From assembly GCF_003018255.1 (NCBI RefSeq), contig NZ_CP027440.1: a DNA stretch of 64,000 nucleotides. The stretch is one strand, 5' to 3'. Positions 3,861-45,760 of this stretch are shown one piece after another (position 1 is the first letter of the stretch; every line of letters begins with the position of its first letter). Origin of the DNA: Escherichia coli (GTDB lineage: Bacteria > Pseudomonadota > Gammaproteobacteria > Enterobacterales > Enterobacteriaceae). The notes beneath the pieces were generated by a model. It searched no databases. It saw only the letters and a program-made list of their open reading frames with translations, and had not been told where the DNA came from. Both the position numbers and the translations under genes were made by a program.

Positions 3861-4625
3861 ATGAAAATAATAACCTGCTTTAAGCTGGTGCCTGAAGAAC
3901 AGGACATTGTTGTCACTCCAGAATATACCCTGAATTTCGACAATGCCGACGCCAAAATCAGCCAGTTCGATCTCAATGCCATTGAAGCTGCAAGCCAGCT
4001 TGCAACAGATGACGATGAGATAGCCGCGCTGACCGTCGGCGGCTCTTTGTTGCAGAACTCGAAAGTGCGCAAAGACGTGCTATCCCGCGGGCCGCACAGC
4101 CTGTATATGGTGCAGGATGCACAACTTGAGCATGCACTGCCTCTCGATACCGCAAAGGCGCTGGCGACAGCAGTTGAAAAGATCGGCTTCGATTTACTGA
4201 TCTTTGGTGAAGGTTCCGGCGACCTTTATGCCCAGCAGGTTGGCTTGCTGGTCGGAGAAATTCTGCAACTTCCGGTGATTAATGCAGTGAGTGCCATTCA
4301 GCGTCAGGGCAATACACTGGTGATTGAACGCACGCTTGAAGATGATGTTGAAGTTATTGAACTCTCTGTTCCAGCCGTGCTCTGCGTCACCTCCGATATT
4401 AACGTACCACGTATTCCTTCGATGAAAGCCATCCTCGGCGCGGGTAAAAAACCGGTAAATCAGTGGCAGGCAAGTGATATTGGCTGGAGCCAGAGCGCAC
4501 CACTTGCTGAACTGACCGGCATTCGCGTACCGCCGCAAACAGAACGTAAGCACATCATTCTCGATAACGATTCGCCGGAGGCCATTGCCGAGCTGGCAGA
4601 ACATCTGAAGAAAGCCCTGAACTGA
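3861..4625 (+). CDS. ydiQ: Electron-transfer flavoprotein beta-subunit-like protein (FixA-like)
   Basis: ORF-track frame 3762..4625 trimmed to ATG 3861 (MKIITCFKLVPEE...) preceded by AGGAGA at 3851-3856; 254 aa. Confidence 0.9.
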   Translation: MKIITCFKLVPEEQDIVVTPEYTLNFDNADAKISQFDLNAIEAASQLATDDDEIAALTVGGSLLQNSKVRKDVLSRGPHSLYMVQDAQLEHALPLDTAKALATAVEKIGFDLLIFGEGSGDLYAQQVGLLVGEILQLPVINAVSAIQRQGNTLVIERTLEDDVEVIELSVPAVLCVTSDINVPRIPSMKAILGAGKKPVNQWQASDIGWSQSAPLAELTGIRVPPQTERKHIILDNDSPEAIAELAEHLKKALN

Positions 4626-8945: not shown

Positions 8946-8980
8946 CCCGGCGACAAAACGCCGCCGGGGATTTATTTTAT
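8946..8980. terminator. Hairpin plus T-tract between convergent fadK and ppsA (candidate bidirectional terminator)
   Basis: Stem cccggcg (8946-8952) pairs with cgccggg (8962-8968), followed by tttattttatttc. Confidence 0.5.
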
Positions 8981-11355
8981 TTCTTCAGTTCAGCCAGGCT
9001 TAACCAGGTTTGCACCACGGTATCCGGGTTCAGAGACAGGCTATCGATCCCCTCTTCCATCAACCATGCGGCAAAGTCTTCGTGGTCGGACGGACCCTGA
9101 CCGCAAATCCCGACATATTTGCCCTGTTTCTTCGCGGCACGAATCGCCATCGACAGCAGTGCTTTCACCGCATCGTTGCGCTCATCGAACAGTTCAGACA
9201 CCACTCCGGAGTCACGGTCCAGACCGAGCGCCAGCTGTGTCATGTCGTTTGAGCCAATTGAGAAGCCGTCGAAATATTCGAGGAACTGCTCTGCCAGCAA
9301 GGCGTTGGACGGAATTTCACACATCATGATGATTTTCAGCCCGTTCTCACCACGTTTCAGCCCCTGACGCGCCAGTTCCTCAACCACCGCTTTCGCCTGA
9401 TCTACGGTACGCACGAACGGGATCATGATCTCAACGTTGGTCAGCCCCATGTCGTTGCGCACACGTTTCACTGCTTCACACTCCAGCGCGAAGCAGTCGC
9501 GGAAGCTGTCGGAAACATAGCGGCCCGCGCCACGGAAGCCGAGCATCGGGTTCTCTTCATCTGGCTCGTAACGCTCACCACCGACCAGGTTGGCATATTC
9601 GTTCGATTTAAAATCAGAGAGACGGACAATGACGCGCTTCGGATAAAACGCGGCACCCAGCGTCGCGATCCCTTCAGTCAGACGCCCAACGTAAAATTCA
9701 CGCGGAGAATCAAAACCTTTCATCATCTCGCGGATTTCGTTTTGCAACTGCGGTTCCTGATCGTCAAACTCAAGCAGTGCGCGTGGGTGGACGCCAATCA
9801 TACGGTTGATGATAAATTCCAGACGCGCAAGGCCGACGCCTTCGTTCGGCAGGCAGGCGAAGTCGAAAGCACGGTCCGGGTTACCGACGTTCATCATCAC
9901 CTTCAACGGCAGATCAGGCATCGTTTCTACGCTGGAGCTTTTCACGCTAAATTCCAGCAACTCCGCATAGACGTAACCGGTATCACCTTCGGCACAAGAA
10001 ACAGTGACGTTCTCACCGTCTTTCATCCGTTCTGTTGCATCACCACAGCCCACTACCGCCGGAATGCCGAGTTCACGAGCGATGATCGCCGCGTGACAGG
10101 TACGACCGCCACGGTTGGTGACGATGGCAGATGCTTTCTTCATGATCGGTTCCCAGTCCGGGTCGGTCATGTCAGTGACCAGCACGTCTCCAGGTTCGAT
10201 GCGGTTCATTTCGCTGATGTCATGGATGACTTTCACCGGACCCGCACCGATGCGATGACCGATAGCACGGCCTTCGGCGATAATCTTACCCTGTGAATGC
10301 AGCGTATAACGCTCCATGACCTGACCGCGTGAGCGCACGGTTTCCGGACGCGCCTGCACAATGAACAGTTTACCGGTGTGGCCATCTTTCGCCCACTCAA
10401 TATCCATTGGGCGACCGTAGTGTTTCTCAATTTGTACGGCCTGTTTTGCCAGTTCCTGCACTTCTTCGTTGGTCAGCGAGAAGATGTCACGCTGTTCTTG
10501 CGGTACGTCCTCGATTTTAACCTGCTTGCCGTGCTCCTGGGTCGGCGCGTAAACCATGCGGATTTTTTTCGACCCCATGGTGCGGCGCACGATAGCCGGG
10601 CGATTCGCCGCCAGTGTCGGTTTGTGCACGTAAAACTCATCCGGGTTAACCGCACCCTGCACGACCATTTCACCAAGGCCCCATGCGGAAGTGATAAACA
10701 CCACCTGGTCAAAGCCGGATTCGGTATCAATGGAGAACATCACGCCAGAAGATGCGAGGTCGGAGCGCACCATCCGCTGAACACCGGCGGACAGCGCCAC
10801 GCCACGGTGATCGTAACCCTGGTGCACACGATAAGAGATGGCGCGATCGTTAAACAGAGAAGCAAATACATGTTTCACAGCCACGAGAACGGCGTCAAAA
10901 CCCTGAACGTTGAGGAAAGTTTCCTGCTGACCGGCAAAAGAAGCGTCCGGCATATCTTCTGCAGTAGCGGAGGAACGCACCGCAAACGAGGCGTTTTCGT
11001 CATCGGCGGAAAGCTGTGCATAGGCTTCGCGGATGGCGTTTTCCAGCTCAGGCTGGAAGGGAGTGTCGATAATCCACTGGCGGATTTGCGCGCCCGCTTT
11101 CGCAAGCTGGGTAACATCGTCAATATCCGTTTTATCCAGCAGTTCATAAATGCGCTGGTTTACGCCGCTTTGGTCCAGAAACTGGTTAAACGCGTCGGCG
11201 GTTGTGGCGAAACCATTCGGAACGGAAACACCCATTCCGGAAAGGTTAGTAATCATTTCACCCAGGGAGGCATTTTTGCCCCCAACCCTGTCTACATCAT
11301 TCATGCCGAGTTGGTTATACCAAAGCACCAGCGGTGACGAGCCATTGTTGGACAT
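8977..11355 (-). CDS. ppsA: Phosphoenolpyruvate synthase
   Basis: 792-aa ORF; translation recognised as PEP synthase ([34 protein letters not shown]...). Confidence 0.97.
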
Positions 11356-11687: not shown

Positions 11688-12521
11688 ATGGATAATGCTG
11701 TTGATCGCCACGTTTTTTATATTTCTGATGGTACGGCAATAACTGCGGAGGTATTAGGACACGCAGTAATGTCACAATTTCCCGTCACTATCAGCAGCAT
11801 TACGCTGCCGTTTGTCGAAAATGAGAGCCGTGCACGGGCAGTGAAGGATCAGATTGACGCAATTTATCACCAGACAGGTGTGCGCCCGCTGGTCTTCTAC
11901 TCCATCGTGTTGCCGGAGATTCGCGCCATCATCTTGCAAAGTGAGGGCTTTTGCCAGGATATCGTTCAGGCGCTGGTTGCCCCGCTACAACAAGAGATGA
12001 AACTGGATCCAACGCCGATTGCTCATCGTACCCATGGCCTTAACCCTAATAATCTCAATAAATATGATGCGCGCATTGCTGCGATTGATTACACCCTCGC
12101 CCACGATGATGGCATTTCGTTACGCAATCTGGACCAGGCTCAGGTGATCCTGCTCGGCGTTTCTCGCTGTGGTAAAACCCCCACCAGTCTGTATCTGGCA
12201 ATGCAGTTTGGTATCCGCGCGGCAAACTACCCCTTTATTGCCGACGATATGGATAATCTTGTGCTACCCGCGTCGCTCAAACCGCTTCAGCATAAATTGT
12301 TCGGCCTGACTATCGACCCGGAACGTCTGGCGGCGATTCGCGAGGAACGTCGGGAGAACAGTCGCTATGCCTCGCTTCGTCAGTGCAGGATGGAAGTCGC
12401 GGAAGTGGAAGCGTTGTACCGTAAAAATCAGATCCCGTGGATTAACAGTACCAATTATTCGGTAGAAGAGATTGCCACCAAGATCCTCGATATCATGGGC
12501 CTTAGCCGTCGAATGTACTAG
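11688..12521 (+). CDS. ppsR: PEP synthase regulatory protein (bifunctional kinase/pyrophosphorylase)
   Basis: 277-aa ORF divergent from ppsA; P-loop GVSRCGKT in the translation. Confidence 0.95.
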
Positions 12522-12677: not shown

Positions 12678-13724
12678 ATGAACAGAACTGACGAACTCCG
12701 TACTGCGCGTATTGAGAGCCTGGTAACGCCCGCCGAACTCGCGCTACGGTATCCCGTAACGCCTGGCGTCGCCACCCATGTCACCGACTCCCGCCGCAGA
12801 ATTGAAAAAATACTGAATGGTGAAGATAAGCGACTGTTGGTCATTATTGGCCCCTGCTCGATCCACGATCTCACCGCTGCAATGGAGTACGCCACCCGTC
12901 TGCAGTCGCTGCGCAACCAGTACCAGTCACGGCTGGAAATCGTAATGCGCACCTATTTTGAAAAACCACGAACTGTTGTCGGCTGGAAAGGGCTAATCTC
13001 CGATCCAGATTTAAACGGCAGCTATCGGGTAAATCACGGTCTGGAGCTGGCGCGCAAATTACTTTTACAGGTAAATGAGCTGGGCGTCCCTACCGCGACT
13101 GAGTTCCTCGATATGGTGACCGGTCAGTTTATTGCTGATTTAATCAGTTGGGGCGCGATTGGCGCACGTACTACCGAAAGTCAGATCCACCGTGAAATGG
13201 CTTCGGCACTCTCCTGTCCGGTAGGTTTTAAAAATGGTACCGATGGCAACACGCGGATTGCCGTGGATGCTATCCGCGCAGCCCGCGCCAGCCATATGTT
13301 CCTCTCGCCAGACAAAAATGGTCAGATGACCATCTATCAGACCAGCGGCAACCCGTATGGCCACATTATTATGCGTGGCGGCAAAAAACCGAATTATCAT
13401 GCCGATGATATCGCCGCAGCCTGCGATACGCTGCACGAGTTTGATTTACCTGAACATCTGGTGGTGGATTTCAGCCACGGTAACTGCCAGAAGCAGCACC
13501 GACGCCAGTTAGAAGTTTGTGAGGATATTTGTCAGCAAATCCGCAATGGATCTACGGCGATTGCTGGAATTATGGCGGAAAGTTTCCTGCGCGAAGGAAC
13601 GCAAAAAATCGTCGGCGGTCAGCCGCTCACTTACGGTCAATCCATTACCGACCCGTGTCTGGGCTGGGAAGATACCGAACGCCTGGTCGAAAAACTCGCC
13701 TCTGCGGTAGATACTCGCTTCTGA
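12678..13724 (+). CDS. aroH: 3-deoxy-D-arabino-heptulosonate-7-phosphate synthase, Trp-sensitive
   Basis: 348-aa ORF; translation recognised as class I DAHP synthase. Confidence 0.97.
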   Translation: MNRTDELRTARIESLVTPAELALRYPVTPGVATHVTDSRRRIEKILNGEDKRLLVIIGPCSIHDLTAAMEYATRLQSLRNQYQSRLEIVMRTYFEKPRTVVGWKGLISDPDLNGSYRVNHGLELARKLLLQVNELGVPTATEFLDMVTGQFIADLISWGAIGARTTESQIHREMASALSCPVGFKNGTDGNTRIAVDAIRAARASHMFLSPDKNGQMTIYQTSGNPYGHIIMRGGKKPNYHADDIAAACDTLHEFDLPEHLVVDFSHGNCQKQHRRQLEVCEDICQQIRNGSTAIAGIMAESFLREGTQKIVGGQPLTYGQSITDPCLGWEDTERLVEKLASAVDTRF

Positions 13725-13729
13725 ATGCG

Positions 13730-13758
13730 TGCCCATTCCTGACGGGATGGGCATTTCT
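13730..13758 (+). terminator. Candidate aroH terminator hairpin
   Basis: gcccattcc / ggatgggc imperfect stem directly after the aroH stop, followed by atttct. Confidence 0.4.
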
Positions 13759-13814
13759 GCGCAACTTGTTGTCTTCTCAACAAATTACTGCTTGCTCTGG
13801 CCCGCCATAATATT

Positions 13815-13833
13815 GATAATAAGAATCATTGTT
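13815..13833 (+). promoter_or_regulatory. Fur box upstream of ydiE
   Basis: gataataagaatcattgtt matches the 19-bp Fur consensus GATAATGATAATCATTATC at most positions; sits about 20 nt upstream of the ydiE ATG. Confidence 0.55.
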
Positions 13834-13855
13834 ATATAAATTATTATTAATTTTT

Positions 13856-14047
13856 ATGCGTTATACGGATAGCAGAAAACTCACGCCTGAAACGGATGCC
13901 AATCACAAGACCGCTTCCCCGCAGCCCATCCGGCGAATTACCAGCCAGACACTGTTAGGTCCGGATGGCAAACTGATTATCGATCATGACGGGCAAGAAT
14001 ATCTGCTCCGTAAAACTCAGGCTGGCAAGCTGCTGTTGACCAAGTAA
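13856..14047 (+). CDS. ydiE: HemP-like small protein (hemin uptake protein family)
   Basis: ORF-track frame begins at a TTG (13829); trimmed to the first ATG at 13856 giving 63 aa ([12 protein letters not shown]...). Confidence 0.75.
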
Positions 14048-14050
14048 CCT

Positions 14051-15526
<1,476 letters not shown>

Positions 15527-15549: not shown

Positions 15550-16263
15550 TTATCGCTGAACCAACGTCGTTATCTGATTTACAGGAACGGCAGGCCACAG
15601 GCATCCCTGGAGAGCATGGAAATCAAAGGGGGTAATCTGTGCCATTATTTCTGGCGTATCAATGCCCCCCGCGATGATGCAATTGCAACATGGGGAAATT
15701 TGAGCCTGGATCGCACGAATAAACGGTTCGAAGGAGCGATGCGTGATTTGTTGCTGAATAAAACTTTTATCCAGCATGACGCGGGTGAAAAGACCATCAA
15801 AAACCGCTTTCATTGTGCTATTGCCTGCGCCCAAATTACCTAACACAAGGGGATACATTTGCGATAAGGACAAAAGATCGCGATTATCTTTTCCTTCATC
15901 GAGATGCGGGTAATTCTCATTAATCAACAGTTCAATAAACGGATATTTTAATAGTTCGCCTGCGTAATTATCCCTGTCTAATAATAATGTAGCCACTTGT
16001 GGCGTTAAATTAAGCCAGGCAAAGAGTTTATGTTGAATAAAAAAGTGTTGGCATGATTTTAGTAATTCCAACTGCTCTGAAAATAATTGCCAATGTTGCT
16101 CCTCGGTAAGTTGCGCTATAACCCGACTCGTCGGGATACGAACCGTACCATCTTCACTGGAGAAATGGGTAATTAACTCAACGCCGACAAGGTCTTGCTG
16201 GTTATCTCTTATCGGCAGGAAATAGCAATCAGAATGATAAAGATTCTCCAAAAAAATCTTCAT
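15550..16263 (-). CDS. ydiV: Degenerate EAL-domain protein, anti-FlhD4C2 factor
   Basis: 237-aa ORF; translation recognised as YdiV. Confidence 0.9.
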   Translation of the reverse strand: MKIFLENLYHSDCYFLPIRDNQQDLVGVELITHFSSEDGTVRIPTSRVIAQLTEEQHWQLFSEQLELLKSCQHFFIQHKLFAWLNLTPQVATLLLDRDNYAGELLKYPFIELLINENYPHLDEGKDNRDLLSLSQMYPLVLGNLGAGNSTMKAVFDGLFTRVMLDKSFIQQQITHRSFEPFIRAIQAQISPCCNCIIAGGIDTPEIMAQITPFDFHALQGCLWPAVPVNQITTLVQR

Positions 16264-16509
16264 GGTAACCGTCCCTCTCGAAGGATGTTTTTCAGTATCC
16301 GGCTAAAAGGGATGAGGCCATAAGACATAACAATTACAGAAGGAGTAACTTTCATTTGTTCCATGTTAACCACTTTTTCAGGGGTCCTTTTTTTAGATTA
16401 TCCTGATTATAAACGAATAATCCATTTACGGAATTTTTGTCTGCAAAATACTACTGTATTCAGGAGTAAATGGACGGCGATGTATCATCGCCGTCCATTT
16501 TTCGACATA

Positions 16510-16974
16510 CTAGATTCGTCTCGCCTGCCAGAAATTTTTCTGCCAATAGACATTATCAAGTGAGGAACGCATCACTCCCTTGCTGGTAGAGGCGTGGATA
16601 AATTGGTTGTTGGTATCATAAATACCTACATGCAAACCATTTTGTCCGGAGCCCGTTTTGAAAAAGACCAGGTCACCAGGCAGCAACTCGTCTTTATCAA
16701 TTTGCGTGCCGATAGAGGCTTGTTGTTTGGTTTCACGGGGCAGCTGCAAATCGAAACGATCGCGCATCGTCACAACCACAAACCCCGAACAGTCCACACC
16801 GCGCCGCGTCATGCCACCATAACGATACGGCGTGCCATGCCAGCTTTGTAGCTGGTCGTTCAAACCGGCAATAACGGTAATCGAATCAGAAAGTCTGGCA
16901 TTTGGCGGCGGTGCTTTATGGTGGCTACACCCGGCCAGAAACAGTGCTGTGATCAAAATAAGGCAGAAACGCAT
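16510..16974 (-). CDS. nlpC: NlpC/P60-family lipoprotein (C40 peptidase)
   Basis: 154-aa ORF; lipobox LAGC near the N-terminus and catalytic-Cys context DCSGF. Confidence 0.9.
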   Translation of the reverse strand: MRFCLILITALFLAGCSHHKAPPPNARLSDSITVIAGLNDQLQSWHGTPYRYGGMTRRGVDCSGFVVVTMRDRFDLQLPRETKQQASIGTQIDKDELLPGDLVFFKTGSGQNGLHVGIYDTNNQFIHASTSKGVMRSSLDNVYWQKNFWQARRI

Positions 16975-19396: not shown

Positions 19397-19455
19397 GGTA
19401 TCCGTTCTGCTGAAGTGTCATGGCGTTGATTTTACGGTGACTCTTCGACAGTGAA

Positions 19456-19486
19456 AAGAAAAAAGGCCGCAGAGCGGCCTTTTTAG
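19456..19486. terminator. Intrinsic terminator downstream of ihfA (symmetric A/T tracts, potentially bidirectional)
   Basis: ggccgc-aga-gcggcc hairpin (19465-19479) flanked by aaaaaaa (19458-19464) and ttttt (19480-19484). Confidence 0.7.
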
Positions 19487-19496
19487 TTAGATCAGA

Positions 19497-19796
19497 TTAC
19501 TCGTCTTTGGGCGAAGCGTTTTCGACCCGGCTTTTTAACTTCTGCCCGGGTCTGAAGGTCACCACGCGCCGTGCTGTAATGGGAATATCCTCGCCCGTTT
19601 TCGGGTTACGTCCCGGGCGTTGATTCTTATCACGCAGATCGAAGTTACCAAAACCAGAGAGTTTCACCTGTTCGCCGTTTTCCAGAGCGCGACGGATCTC
19701 TTCGAAAAACAGTTCAACCAGTTCTTTGGCATCCCGCTTGCTAAGCCCAAGCTTATCAAACAGATATTCTGACATTTCAGCTTTTGTAAGCGCCAT
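19497..19796 (-). CDS. ihfA: Integration host factor alpha subunit
   Basis: 99-aa [55 protein letters not shown]... recognised as IHF-alpha. Confidence 0.97.
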
Positions 19797-23395: not shown

Positions 23396-23420
23396 ACAAA
23401 AAAAGCCTCCACTGGGAGGC
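23396..23420 (-). terminator. pheST attenuator terminator
   Basis: gcctcc-actg-ggaggc hairpin (23405-23420); on the transcribed (minus) strand it is followed by a U-run (plus-strand A-run 23396-23404); lies between pheM and pheS. Confidence 0.75.
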
Positions 23421-23470
23421 TTTCAGGCGCTGTTTTCCGTTTCTCTTCTCACGCGCTAGCCTCCTGGAGT

Positions 23471-23515
23471 CAGGTGCTAAAGTAAAAAAAGAAGCGGAAA
23501 ATAGCAGCATTCATT
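23471..23515 (-). CDS. pheM: pheST operon leader peptide (Phe-rich, 14 aa)
   Basis: Reverse complement of 23471-23515 reads ATG AAT GCT GCT ATT TTC CGC TTC TTT TTT TAC TTT AGC ACC TGA = [14 protein letters not shown]; five Phe codons. Confidence 0.85.
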
Positions 23516-23599
23516 GCTTGCGTTACCTTTTGGTACTCTTCAAAAGACCTTTATTGAAAAGGCTACGGCGATAAAAGTCAATGTTTTGATGGCGTTGAA

Positions 23600-38499: not shown

Positions 38500-38700
38500 T
38501 GTTTATGTCGGATGCGGCGTGAACGCCTTATCCGGCCTACAAAACTGTGCAAATTCAATATATTGCAGGAAAAACGTAGGCCTGATAAGCGAAGCGCATC
38601 AGGCAGTTTTGCGTTTGTCAGCAGTCTCAAGCGGCGCAGTTACGCCGCCTTTGTAGGAATTAATCGCCGGATGCAAGGTTCACGCCGCATCTGGCAAACA
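38500..38700. repeat. BIME / RIP element (REP - IHF-site - inverted REP, plus an additional REP-like palindrome)
   Basis: gtcggatgcggcgtgaacgccttatccggcctac (REP), then aaaactgtgcaaattcaatatattgcagg (IHF-site-like core), then gtaggcctgataagcgaagcgcatcaggc (inverted REP), plus cgccggatgcaaggttcacgccgcatctggc further on. Confidence 0.7.
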
Positions 38701-45654: not shown

Positions 45655-45760
45655 GTTCACGCCGGATGCGGCGTGAACGCCTTACTCGACCTACAAAACT
45701 ATGCAAATTCAATACATTGCAGGAGTCGAATAGGCCTGACAGGCGTAGCACGTCAGACGG
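45655..45760. repeat. RIP / BIME element (second copy in the window)
   Basis: gccggatgcggcgtgaacgccttactcgacctac + aaaactatgcaaattcaatacattgcagg + aataggcctgacaggcgtagcacgtcagacgg; near-identical in its core to the element at about 38508-38612. Confidence 0.7.

Follow-up and report, generated by a model that had tools for sequence, protein, structure and literature searches.

The Fur box over the -10 region of the ydiE (hemP) promoter of Escherichia coli and the putative haem-linked role of its 63-residue product

[quoted passage not shown] Two of them, HmuP of Ensifer meliloti and ChuP of Chromobacterium violaceum, are post-transcriptional activators, which act via HmuP-responsive elements in the leaders of receptor genes. 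ChuP binds haem with a Kd of about 18 uM, and HemP of Burkholderia multivorans also binds haem. ChuP further acts on a siderophore receptor gene to which it is not linked, a precedent for action in trans. [quoted passage not shown] Within the HemP/HmuP family, the direction and the level of action thus vary and are not transferable to YdiE.

Three distant YdiE homologues were examined in their contigs. Two of them were found in canonical loci (the layouts are hemP-receptor-hemS-binding protein-permease-ATPase and hemP-receptor), and the third was found in an unrelated context. At the canonical hemP-receptor loci, GATAAT serves, as at ydiE, as the -10 hexamer and at the same time as the first hexamer of the Fur box. 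One of these loci (L020) has a Fur box, GATAATGATTATCATTGTT, that matches the consensus at 17 of 19 positions, and its leader is collinear with the ydiE leader; the other (L021) shows TTGACA-16-GATAAT followed by two overlapping 15/19 boxes. Two of the three sampled distant homologues are followed by the gene of a TonB-dependent haem receptor; ydiE is not. A receptor gene downstream is the typical context of the HemP/HmuP family, not a requirement.

The DNA analysed here, hereafter the window, is a 64-kb stretch of an E. coli chromosome that is collinear over its whole length with E. coli JNE23-011; in the genome comparison, the 401 bases around ydiE were 100% identical to that strain. RefSeq already labels ydiE as 'hemP: hemin uptake protein HemP'. 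We conclude with high confidence that the locus carries a sigma-70 promoter for a single-gene ydiE (hemP) transcript and that this promoter is directly repressed by Fur. The genes of the locus, with window coordinates, are as follows.

8977-11355, minus strand: ppsA
11688-12521, plus strand: ppsR
12678-13724, plus strand: aroH
13730-13759, plus strand: hairpin after aroH resembling an intrinsic terminator, stem TGCCCATTCC/GGGATGGGCA, loop TGAC, then TTTCTG; read from the sequence by eye
13856-14047, plus strand: ydiE/hemP, 63 aa, ATG at 13856, stop codon at 14045-14047
14051-15487, minus strand: selO, convergent with ydiE, stop codon at 14051-14053
15550-16263, minus strand: ydiV
16510-16974, minus strand: nlpC

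YdiE matched the Pfam hemP profile (PF10636) with an E-value of 3.7e-15 and 55.9 bits (cut-off 25), and residues 27-63 spanned the full 37 positions of the profile. These coordinates and this match agree with the preliminary description of the stretch, which had placed a 63-aa HemP-family ORF between aroH and the convergent selO. The length of 63 aa is within the small size (<90 aa) of the HemP/HmuP family. The protein shares 98% identity with E. coli YdiE as crystallised (PDB 4YNX) and is related to Salmonella STM1273 (PDB 2LOJ); a literature search on the YdiE PDB entries gave only NMR-method papers, and fold searches with YdiE returned only the family's own structures. The N-terminal region of about 25 residues is variable and disordered, and it is followed by a conserved C-terminal domain of three strands, a small beta domain. 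In the AF2 model, the pLDDT was below 50 for residues 5-19 and 86-97 for residues 31-63. A search of 1.8 billion representative proteins gave 300 YdiE relatives. Among 138 distant representatives, H44, Y49 and L51 were 100% conserved and I42, T54, L59 and L61 were 99% conserved; all of these residues are present in YdiE.

The literature searched gave no tested function for YdiE, and the earlier statement that its role is unclear still holds. By analogy with its characterised relatives, YdiE would be a putative haem-binding regulator of TonB-dependent receptor expression, not a transporter component. That it is a small haem-binding regulator or adaptor is a tentative reading, which we hold with clearly less than even confidence. 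It is also possible, if somewhat doubtful, that YdiE is a haem or iron trafficking or chaperone protein and not a regulator. His44 and Tyr49, both typical haem ligands, are invariant, and relatives of YdiE bind haem. In a Dub-seq study in BL21, fragments carrying ydiE gave a strong fitness benefit in the presence of phages T5 and CEV2, which depend on FhuA, and feoB fragments were protective as well; the authors read this protection as greater Fur-iron occupancy and called YdiE a 'putative heme trafficking protein' (PMC7553319). Every characterised member of the family, however, acts on receptor-gene expression, and no transport or chaperone assay for the characterised members was found in the literature searched.

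The regulator reading would have consequences beyond the locus. YdiE is among the most consistently iron-regulated E. coli gene products of unknown function, and a sequence search found the ydiE region in 5422 of 5426 complete E. coli genomes. If YdiE were a trans-acting regulator of receptor genes such as chuA or fhuA, a protein-based post-transcriptional layer would be added to the Fur regulon. Such a role would also matter for how pathogenic strains use haem and for how sensitive cells are to FhuA-dependent phages.

A possible target in trans was found through the distant loci. The hemP-receptor spacers of both canonical loci contain GCCAGCC...CAGCCAGC, which is similar to the HmuP-responsive elements known from E. 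meliloti and C. violaceum. When the L020 spacer was used as a blastn query, 2222 of 5426 E. coli genomes each showed a single match, which was just upstream of chuA; in K-12, the element was not matched at the sensitivity of this search. In the chuA leader the element reads GCCAGCCACCCCGG-N-CAGGCAGCCAGC and occupies -63 to -30 relative to chuA; its core does not vary between the chuA leaders and the two canonical hemP loci. As located in individual genomes, the element GCCAGCCACCCCGGTATTAACCCAGGCAGCCAGC, 30-63 nt before chuA, is at 12482-12515 on the minus strand of the chuA locus (L025) in the matching genome and at 4006-4039 of the corresponding locus (L024) in O157:H7. The shuA/chuA leader has been determined experimentally as 278-342 nt, with a published FourU thermometer, in a paper that does not mention hemP. 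The element lies inside this leader, directly upstream of the FourU thermometer.

The region upstream of chuA has a 16/19 Fur box, GATAATAATTCTCATTATC, and contained no hemP (there was no Pfam hit, hhalign gave 0.2% probability, and tblastn returned nothing). A small ORF between this Fur box and chuA (L024 3784-3945) looked HemP-like by eye and was rejected on the same Pfam, hhalign (0.2%) and tblastn negatives. Since the chuA leader shares its element with the hemP-receptor loci and no hemP was detected at chu, YdiE is a candidate trans partner of the chuA leader. The more specific proposal, that YdiE is the missing unlinked factor of HemP/HmuP type for chu haem uptake in pathogenic E. coli, seems unlikely to us on present evidence. 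If it were true, Fur would control chuA twice, directly and via a small trans-acting protein. The ydiE gene and its Fur box are also kept in K-12, which gave no match to the element, and in Salmonella and Citrobacter, so that chuA cannot be the only role of YdiE; the T5-resistance phenotype of the ydiE fragments, seen in BL21, likewise speaks against chuA as the only role. We found no link between YdiE and the chuA leader in the literature searched; the survey of such elements by Amarelle (2019) may cover chuA. Within the 64-kb window itself, a search for the pattern of HmuP-responsive elements found nothing. A CCAGCC just past the ydiE stop codon lies within the selO coding sequence and was taken as a coincidence.

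The neighbourhood of ydiE was compared across 15 ydiE loci from Escherichia, Salmonella and Citrobacter, for which one genome per species was scanned with the YdiE alignment. The gene order ppsR-aroH-ydiE-selO (convergent)-ydiV-nlpC was kept in all 14 usable loci as far as the contigs reach. No haem receptor or transporter gene adjoins ydiE, either in the window, where its neighbours are aroH and the convergent selO, or in the 14 related loci; the gene calls thus bear out the earlier observation that none is next door. The gene had also been called an orphan. This description stands for the neighbourhood, whose layout recurs in 14 loci from three genera, with the qualification that chu genes are present elsewhere. 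At a distance of 1.86 Mb from ydiE, the genome that matches the window carries chuS-chuA, shuT-hutW-hutX-chuY-shuU and a gene for an ATP-binding subunit. Its ydiE is therefore unlinked from haem uptake, not without any haem system.

Two observations were made on individual contigs of this comparison. In Escherichia sp. MOD1-EC7003 (L001 5698-5763), a 22-aa ydiV remnant lies between selO and nlpC, and ydiV appears to have been deleted in this lineage. A 417-bp contig of low coverage (L002, NZ_POTZ01001146.1), assigned to 'Streptomyces sp. NTH33', encodes YdiE and SelO fragments with 98-99% protein identity to E. coli, and it is almost certainly a contamination of the Streptomyces assembly.

Two facts indicate that ydiE is transcribed alone. 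The stem of the hairpin after aroH was kept in 15 of 15 loci in the spacer alignment, with changes on both arms, and in the wild type the expression of aroH (about 280) and that of ydiE (about 10) differ roughly 30-fold (PMC10164565). A terminator scan of the region reported no terminator; the hairpin was missed because its T-run is short.

The elements between the hairpin and the ydiE start codon are the following, with positions relative to the transcription start where these apply.

13782-13797, plus strand: upstream promoter block, consisting of AAATTA (-46 to -41) and, further on, TTGCTC as the -35 hexamer (13792-13797, -36 to -31)
13815-13820, plus strand: -10 hexamer GATAAT, -13 to -8, also the first hexamer of the Fur box; invariant in 15 loci
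13815-13833, no strand assigned: Fur box gataataagaatcattgtt (also written GATAATAAGAATCATTGTT), 15/19 to consensus, spanning -13 to +6
13828, plus strand: ydiE transcription start (A), mapped from a published start-site table
13828-13855, plus strand: ydiE leader, 28 nt, A/U-rich, without a Shine-Dalgarno sequence, with the conserved block ATTATTATTAAT at 13840-13851

In the alignment of the aroH-ydiE spacer from the 15 loci, the columns of the Fur box were 95% identical and those of the flanks and the rest of the spacer were 55-68% identical. Three conserved islands were observed: TTGATAATAAnAATCATTGT (95% over the box), A..TTA....CTTG(C/T) at 13782-13797, and ATTATTATTAAT (93%). The first is nearly invariant across 15 loci of three genera, with diverging flanks, and A..TTA....CTTG is invariant in the 15 loci. 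The distance between CTTGC and GATAAT was ungapped in every species though the intervening sequence varied. A fixed distance across a varying spacer is the pattern expected of a -35/-10 pair, here TTGCTC, 17 bp and GATAAT.

This pair was inferred from conservation before the start data were found, and the mapped start agrees with it. The table of Kim et al. (2012) lists a ydiE start at 1787609 of NC_000913.2 on the plus strand, with 184 reads and a 5'UTR of 28 nt, and the sequence given upstream of the start ends in ...GATAATAAGAATCA (PMC3415461, supplementary file 2). Since the window is the same as MG1655 through the box, the start is placed at A13828 of the window, 7 nt after GATAAT. With this start, the Fur box spans -13 to +6 and holds the -10 hexamer.

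We considered whether the working promoter lies further downstream, with TTGATA (13813-13818) as the -35 hexamer and TATAAA or TAAATT (13835-13842) as the -10 hexamer. Fur would then cover the -35 hexamer and the spacer, not the -10/+1 region, and the leader would be shorter than 10 nt. A downstream promoter of the form TTGATA-16-TATCAA was predicted within a SELEX peak of RNA polymerase (PMC3946193), and our promoter scan chose TTGATA-18-TAAATT. The downstream -10 hexamer, however, varies within E. coli (TATAAA here, TATCAA in MG1655) and is lost in Citrobacter and Salmonella, whereas TTGC..-17-GATAAT is held at a fixed spacing across the loci, and the mapped start at 13828 gives a 28-nt leader. 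It is therefore quite improbable that the downstream promoter is the working one, and it would be at most secondary. The scan's choice was set aside for TTGCTC-17-GATAAT on the grounds of conservation and of the published start. Binding of H-NS in the aroH-ydiE spacer has also been reported (Shimada 2014; PMC3946193), and a second promoter or co-repression by H-NS may operate at ydiE.

The leader that follows from the mapped start folds no better than shuffled sequence (z +1.09), and an Rfam search of the ydiE region found no known RNA. The block ATTATTATTAAT within it (13840-13851, +13 to +24) is 93% identical across loci of three genera, and the 4-6 nt on either side are 55-67% identical. 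This block could serve extended binding of Fur or H-NS, or it could be an A/U-rich translation element that replaces the missing Shine-Dalgarno sequence.

At its other end, the ydiE gene closely approaches selO. A gap of 3 nt separates the stop codon of ydiE (14045-14047) from that of selO (14051-14053, minus strand), and the terminator scan found no terminator between the two genes. It has been reported from RNA-seq data that ydiE and selO form a convergent pair with overlapping transcripts, an 'excludon', as listed by ExcludonFinder (PMC12288877). The close stop codons and this listing are what would be expected if the main output of the locus were the ydiE transcript itself, running antisense into selO under iron limitation and lowering selO. 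In fur mutants, however, selO (ydiU) goes up, by 0.32 log2 in MG1655 and 1.61 log2 in W3110 (PMC10164565), and the domain of the YdiE protein is strongly constrained throughout the family. We regard an antisense transcript as the main output as very improbable.

The Fur box was further analyzed on the basis of its match to the consensus. In a scripted scan, gataataagaatcattgtt differed from the 19-bp consensus GATAATGATAATCATTATC at 4 of 19 positions. It was the best match in the 64 kb and the sole site with at most 4 mismatches on either strand, in line with the close match claimed in the preliminary description; a search that allowed at most 3 mismatches returned nothing because the site carries 4. 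From the end of the box to the ydiE ATG at 13856 there are 22 nt, where about 20 had been estimated. A second Fur site (13809-13827, 14/19) overlaps the box with a shift of 6 bp, or one hexamer, upstream and extends the operator to -19. Overlapping sites shifted by a hexamer are what an array of Fur hexamers would look like. The box is identical in MG1655 and BL21(DE3).

Dinucleotide-preserving shuffles produced at least one such site by chance in 11% of cases when the whole window was shuffled. The chance per shuffle was 0.18% in the 131-bp aroH-ydiE spacer and 0.5% in the AT-rich core of the spacer, which is 80% A+T. The idea that the match is merely AT-rich promoter sequence, conserved as a -10 region and with no real part for Fur, may draw on the GATAAT within the box, on the A+T content of the spacer core and on the whole-window figure, but it is extremely improbable, because the conservation runs to +6, well beyond the -10 hexamer, a Fur ChIP-exo peak falls on the site, ydiE is derepressed by 2.2 to 8.1 log2 in eight of nine fur mutants, and Salmonella ydiE is likewise derepressed without fur.

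The occupancy and expression data come from published work. Gao et al. (2023) reported an MG1655 Fur ChIP-exo peak for ydiE at 1787605-1787617 of NC_000913.2, and an equivalent peak was assigned to ydiE in W3110 (PMC10164565). With the CDS start of that coordinate version as the anchor (1787637 = window 13856), the MG1655 peak converts to 13824-13836 of the window, over the box and the start site. The log2 ratios of ydiE between fur mutant and wild type in the nine strains were 2.87, 8.14, 5.24, 2.91, 7.08, -1.10 (BL21), 3.20, 2.23 and 5.16, with BL21 noted as one exception; the same authors put ydiE in the core Fur regulon of the nine E. coli strains, and ydiE belongs to the Fur-1 and Fur-2 iModulons (PMC10164565). 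In a Salmonella fur mutant, ydiE was 7.4-fold up, in a paper that, where it deals with ydiE, cites earlier work by Fur titration, promoter library and microarray (PMC3212961). Iron-restricting egg white induces ydiE 3.7-4.5-fold (PMC5428311), ydiE is induced in human urinary tract infection (PMC9239202), and, according to a cited microarray study, copper stress induces it as well. No in vitro Fur footprint on the exact E. coli ydiE site was found in the literature searched.

The control by iron and Fur that the preliminary description had proposed is thus documented in published ChIP-exo, fur-mutant RNA-seq and iron-restriction data, and these data show the very dependence of ydiE expression on iron and Fur whose absence had been named there as a refutation. 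The Fur box of ydiE is real and its interpretation is supported; both were already known. In both E. coli and Salmonella, ydiE already counts among the established core members of the Fur regulon, so that its Fur box alone is no addition to what was known.

Some observations on BL21 should be recorded here. BL21 is the only one of the nine strains in which ydiE goes down in the fur mutant, and its ydiV is annotated as frameshifted. At about 13985 of the BL21(DE3) locus (L019), an A replaces the T at window position 13811 (-17), giving CATAAAATTGATAAT; this is the sole difference near the box. As a cause of the reversed fur effect in BL21, this substitution was considered and rejected, because it does not explain the reversal.

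Other features of the window were observed in the same scans. Just inside the start of ydiV/rflP, CAGAATGATAAAGATTCTC (16230-16248) matches the Fur consensus at 14 of 19 positions. Published Fur ChIP-exo peaks for ydiV correspond to about 16225-16237 of the window (W3110) and to 16343-16373 (MG1655) (PMC10164565), and the MG1655 peak is between the ydiV transcription start (about 16399) and the start codon. This suggests a Fur input to the anti-FlhDC factor encoded by ydiV/rflP. A frameshifted type III effector pseudogene of the ShET2/EspL2 family (27338-28368) adjoins thrS and is shorter than the espL1 pseudogene that BL21 has there; the 14/19 Fur-like string inside it (28264-28282) lies in AT-rich DNA and is probably due to chance. 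The gap between tcyP and cedA (35697-35742) is 46 nt in the window, where BL21(DE3) has the 783-bp ydjO; the window strain is without ydjO. Rfam matches were found to STnc540 (19397-19555, minus strand), which overlaps the 3' end of ihfA, to the Phe leader (23396-23520, minus strand) upstream of pheS, and to ES036 (CssrF) in two copies, at 38541-38583 (plus strand) downstream of katE and at 45695-45737 (plus strand) downstream of nadE.

On these grounds a mechanism can be proposed. The site, the promoter, the start, the Fur occupancy, the Fur-dependent expression and the conservation are documented in this analysis or in published data. The operator lies over the -10/+1 region, from -13 to +6, and reaches -19 if the overlapping site upstream is counted. 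With ample iron, Fe2+-Fur dimers on the -10/+1 region would keep RNA polymerase off the promoter; we infer this occlusion over -19 to +6 from what is established for Fur operators in general. Under iron shortage, Fur would leave, and a transcript would be made with a 28-nt A/U-rich leader that lacks a Shine-Dalgarno sequence. The ydiE transcript would then read into the 3' end of the convergent selO.

The promoters of fepA, fhuF, entS and fes, which belong to the E. coli core Fur regulon, have, like that of ydiE, a 19-bp Fur box that overlaps the core promoter. With these and other genes of the regulon, ydiE shares Fur ChIP-exo occupancy, derepression in the absence of fur and listing in the core regulon. 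It differs from them in that its product is a lone 63-aa protein, not a transporter or a biosynthetic operon, and in that its change has the opposite sign in BL21.

The hemP gene of hemPRSTUV in Yersinia enterocolitica and those of L020 and L021 belong to the same Pfam family as YdiE, and each is the first gene behind a Fur box with GATAAT as the -10 hexamer. Unlike in loci of the hemPRSTUV type, ydiE is without downstream genes for a receptor, HemS and an ABC transporter, and has the convergent selO instead; unlike in loci of the L020 and L021 type, no GCCAGCC...CAGCCAGC element follows it. HmuP of E. meliloti and ChuP of C. violaceum are small proteins of the HemP/HmuP family, and YdiE keeps all of the family-invariant residues.
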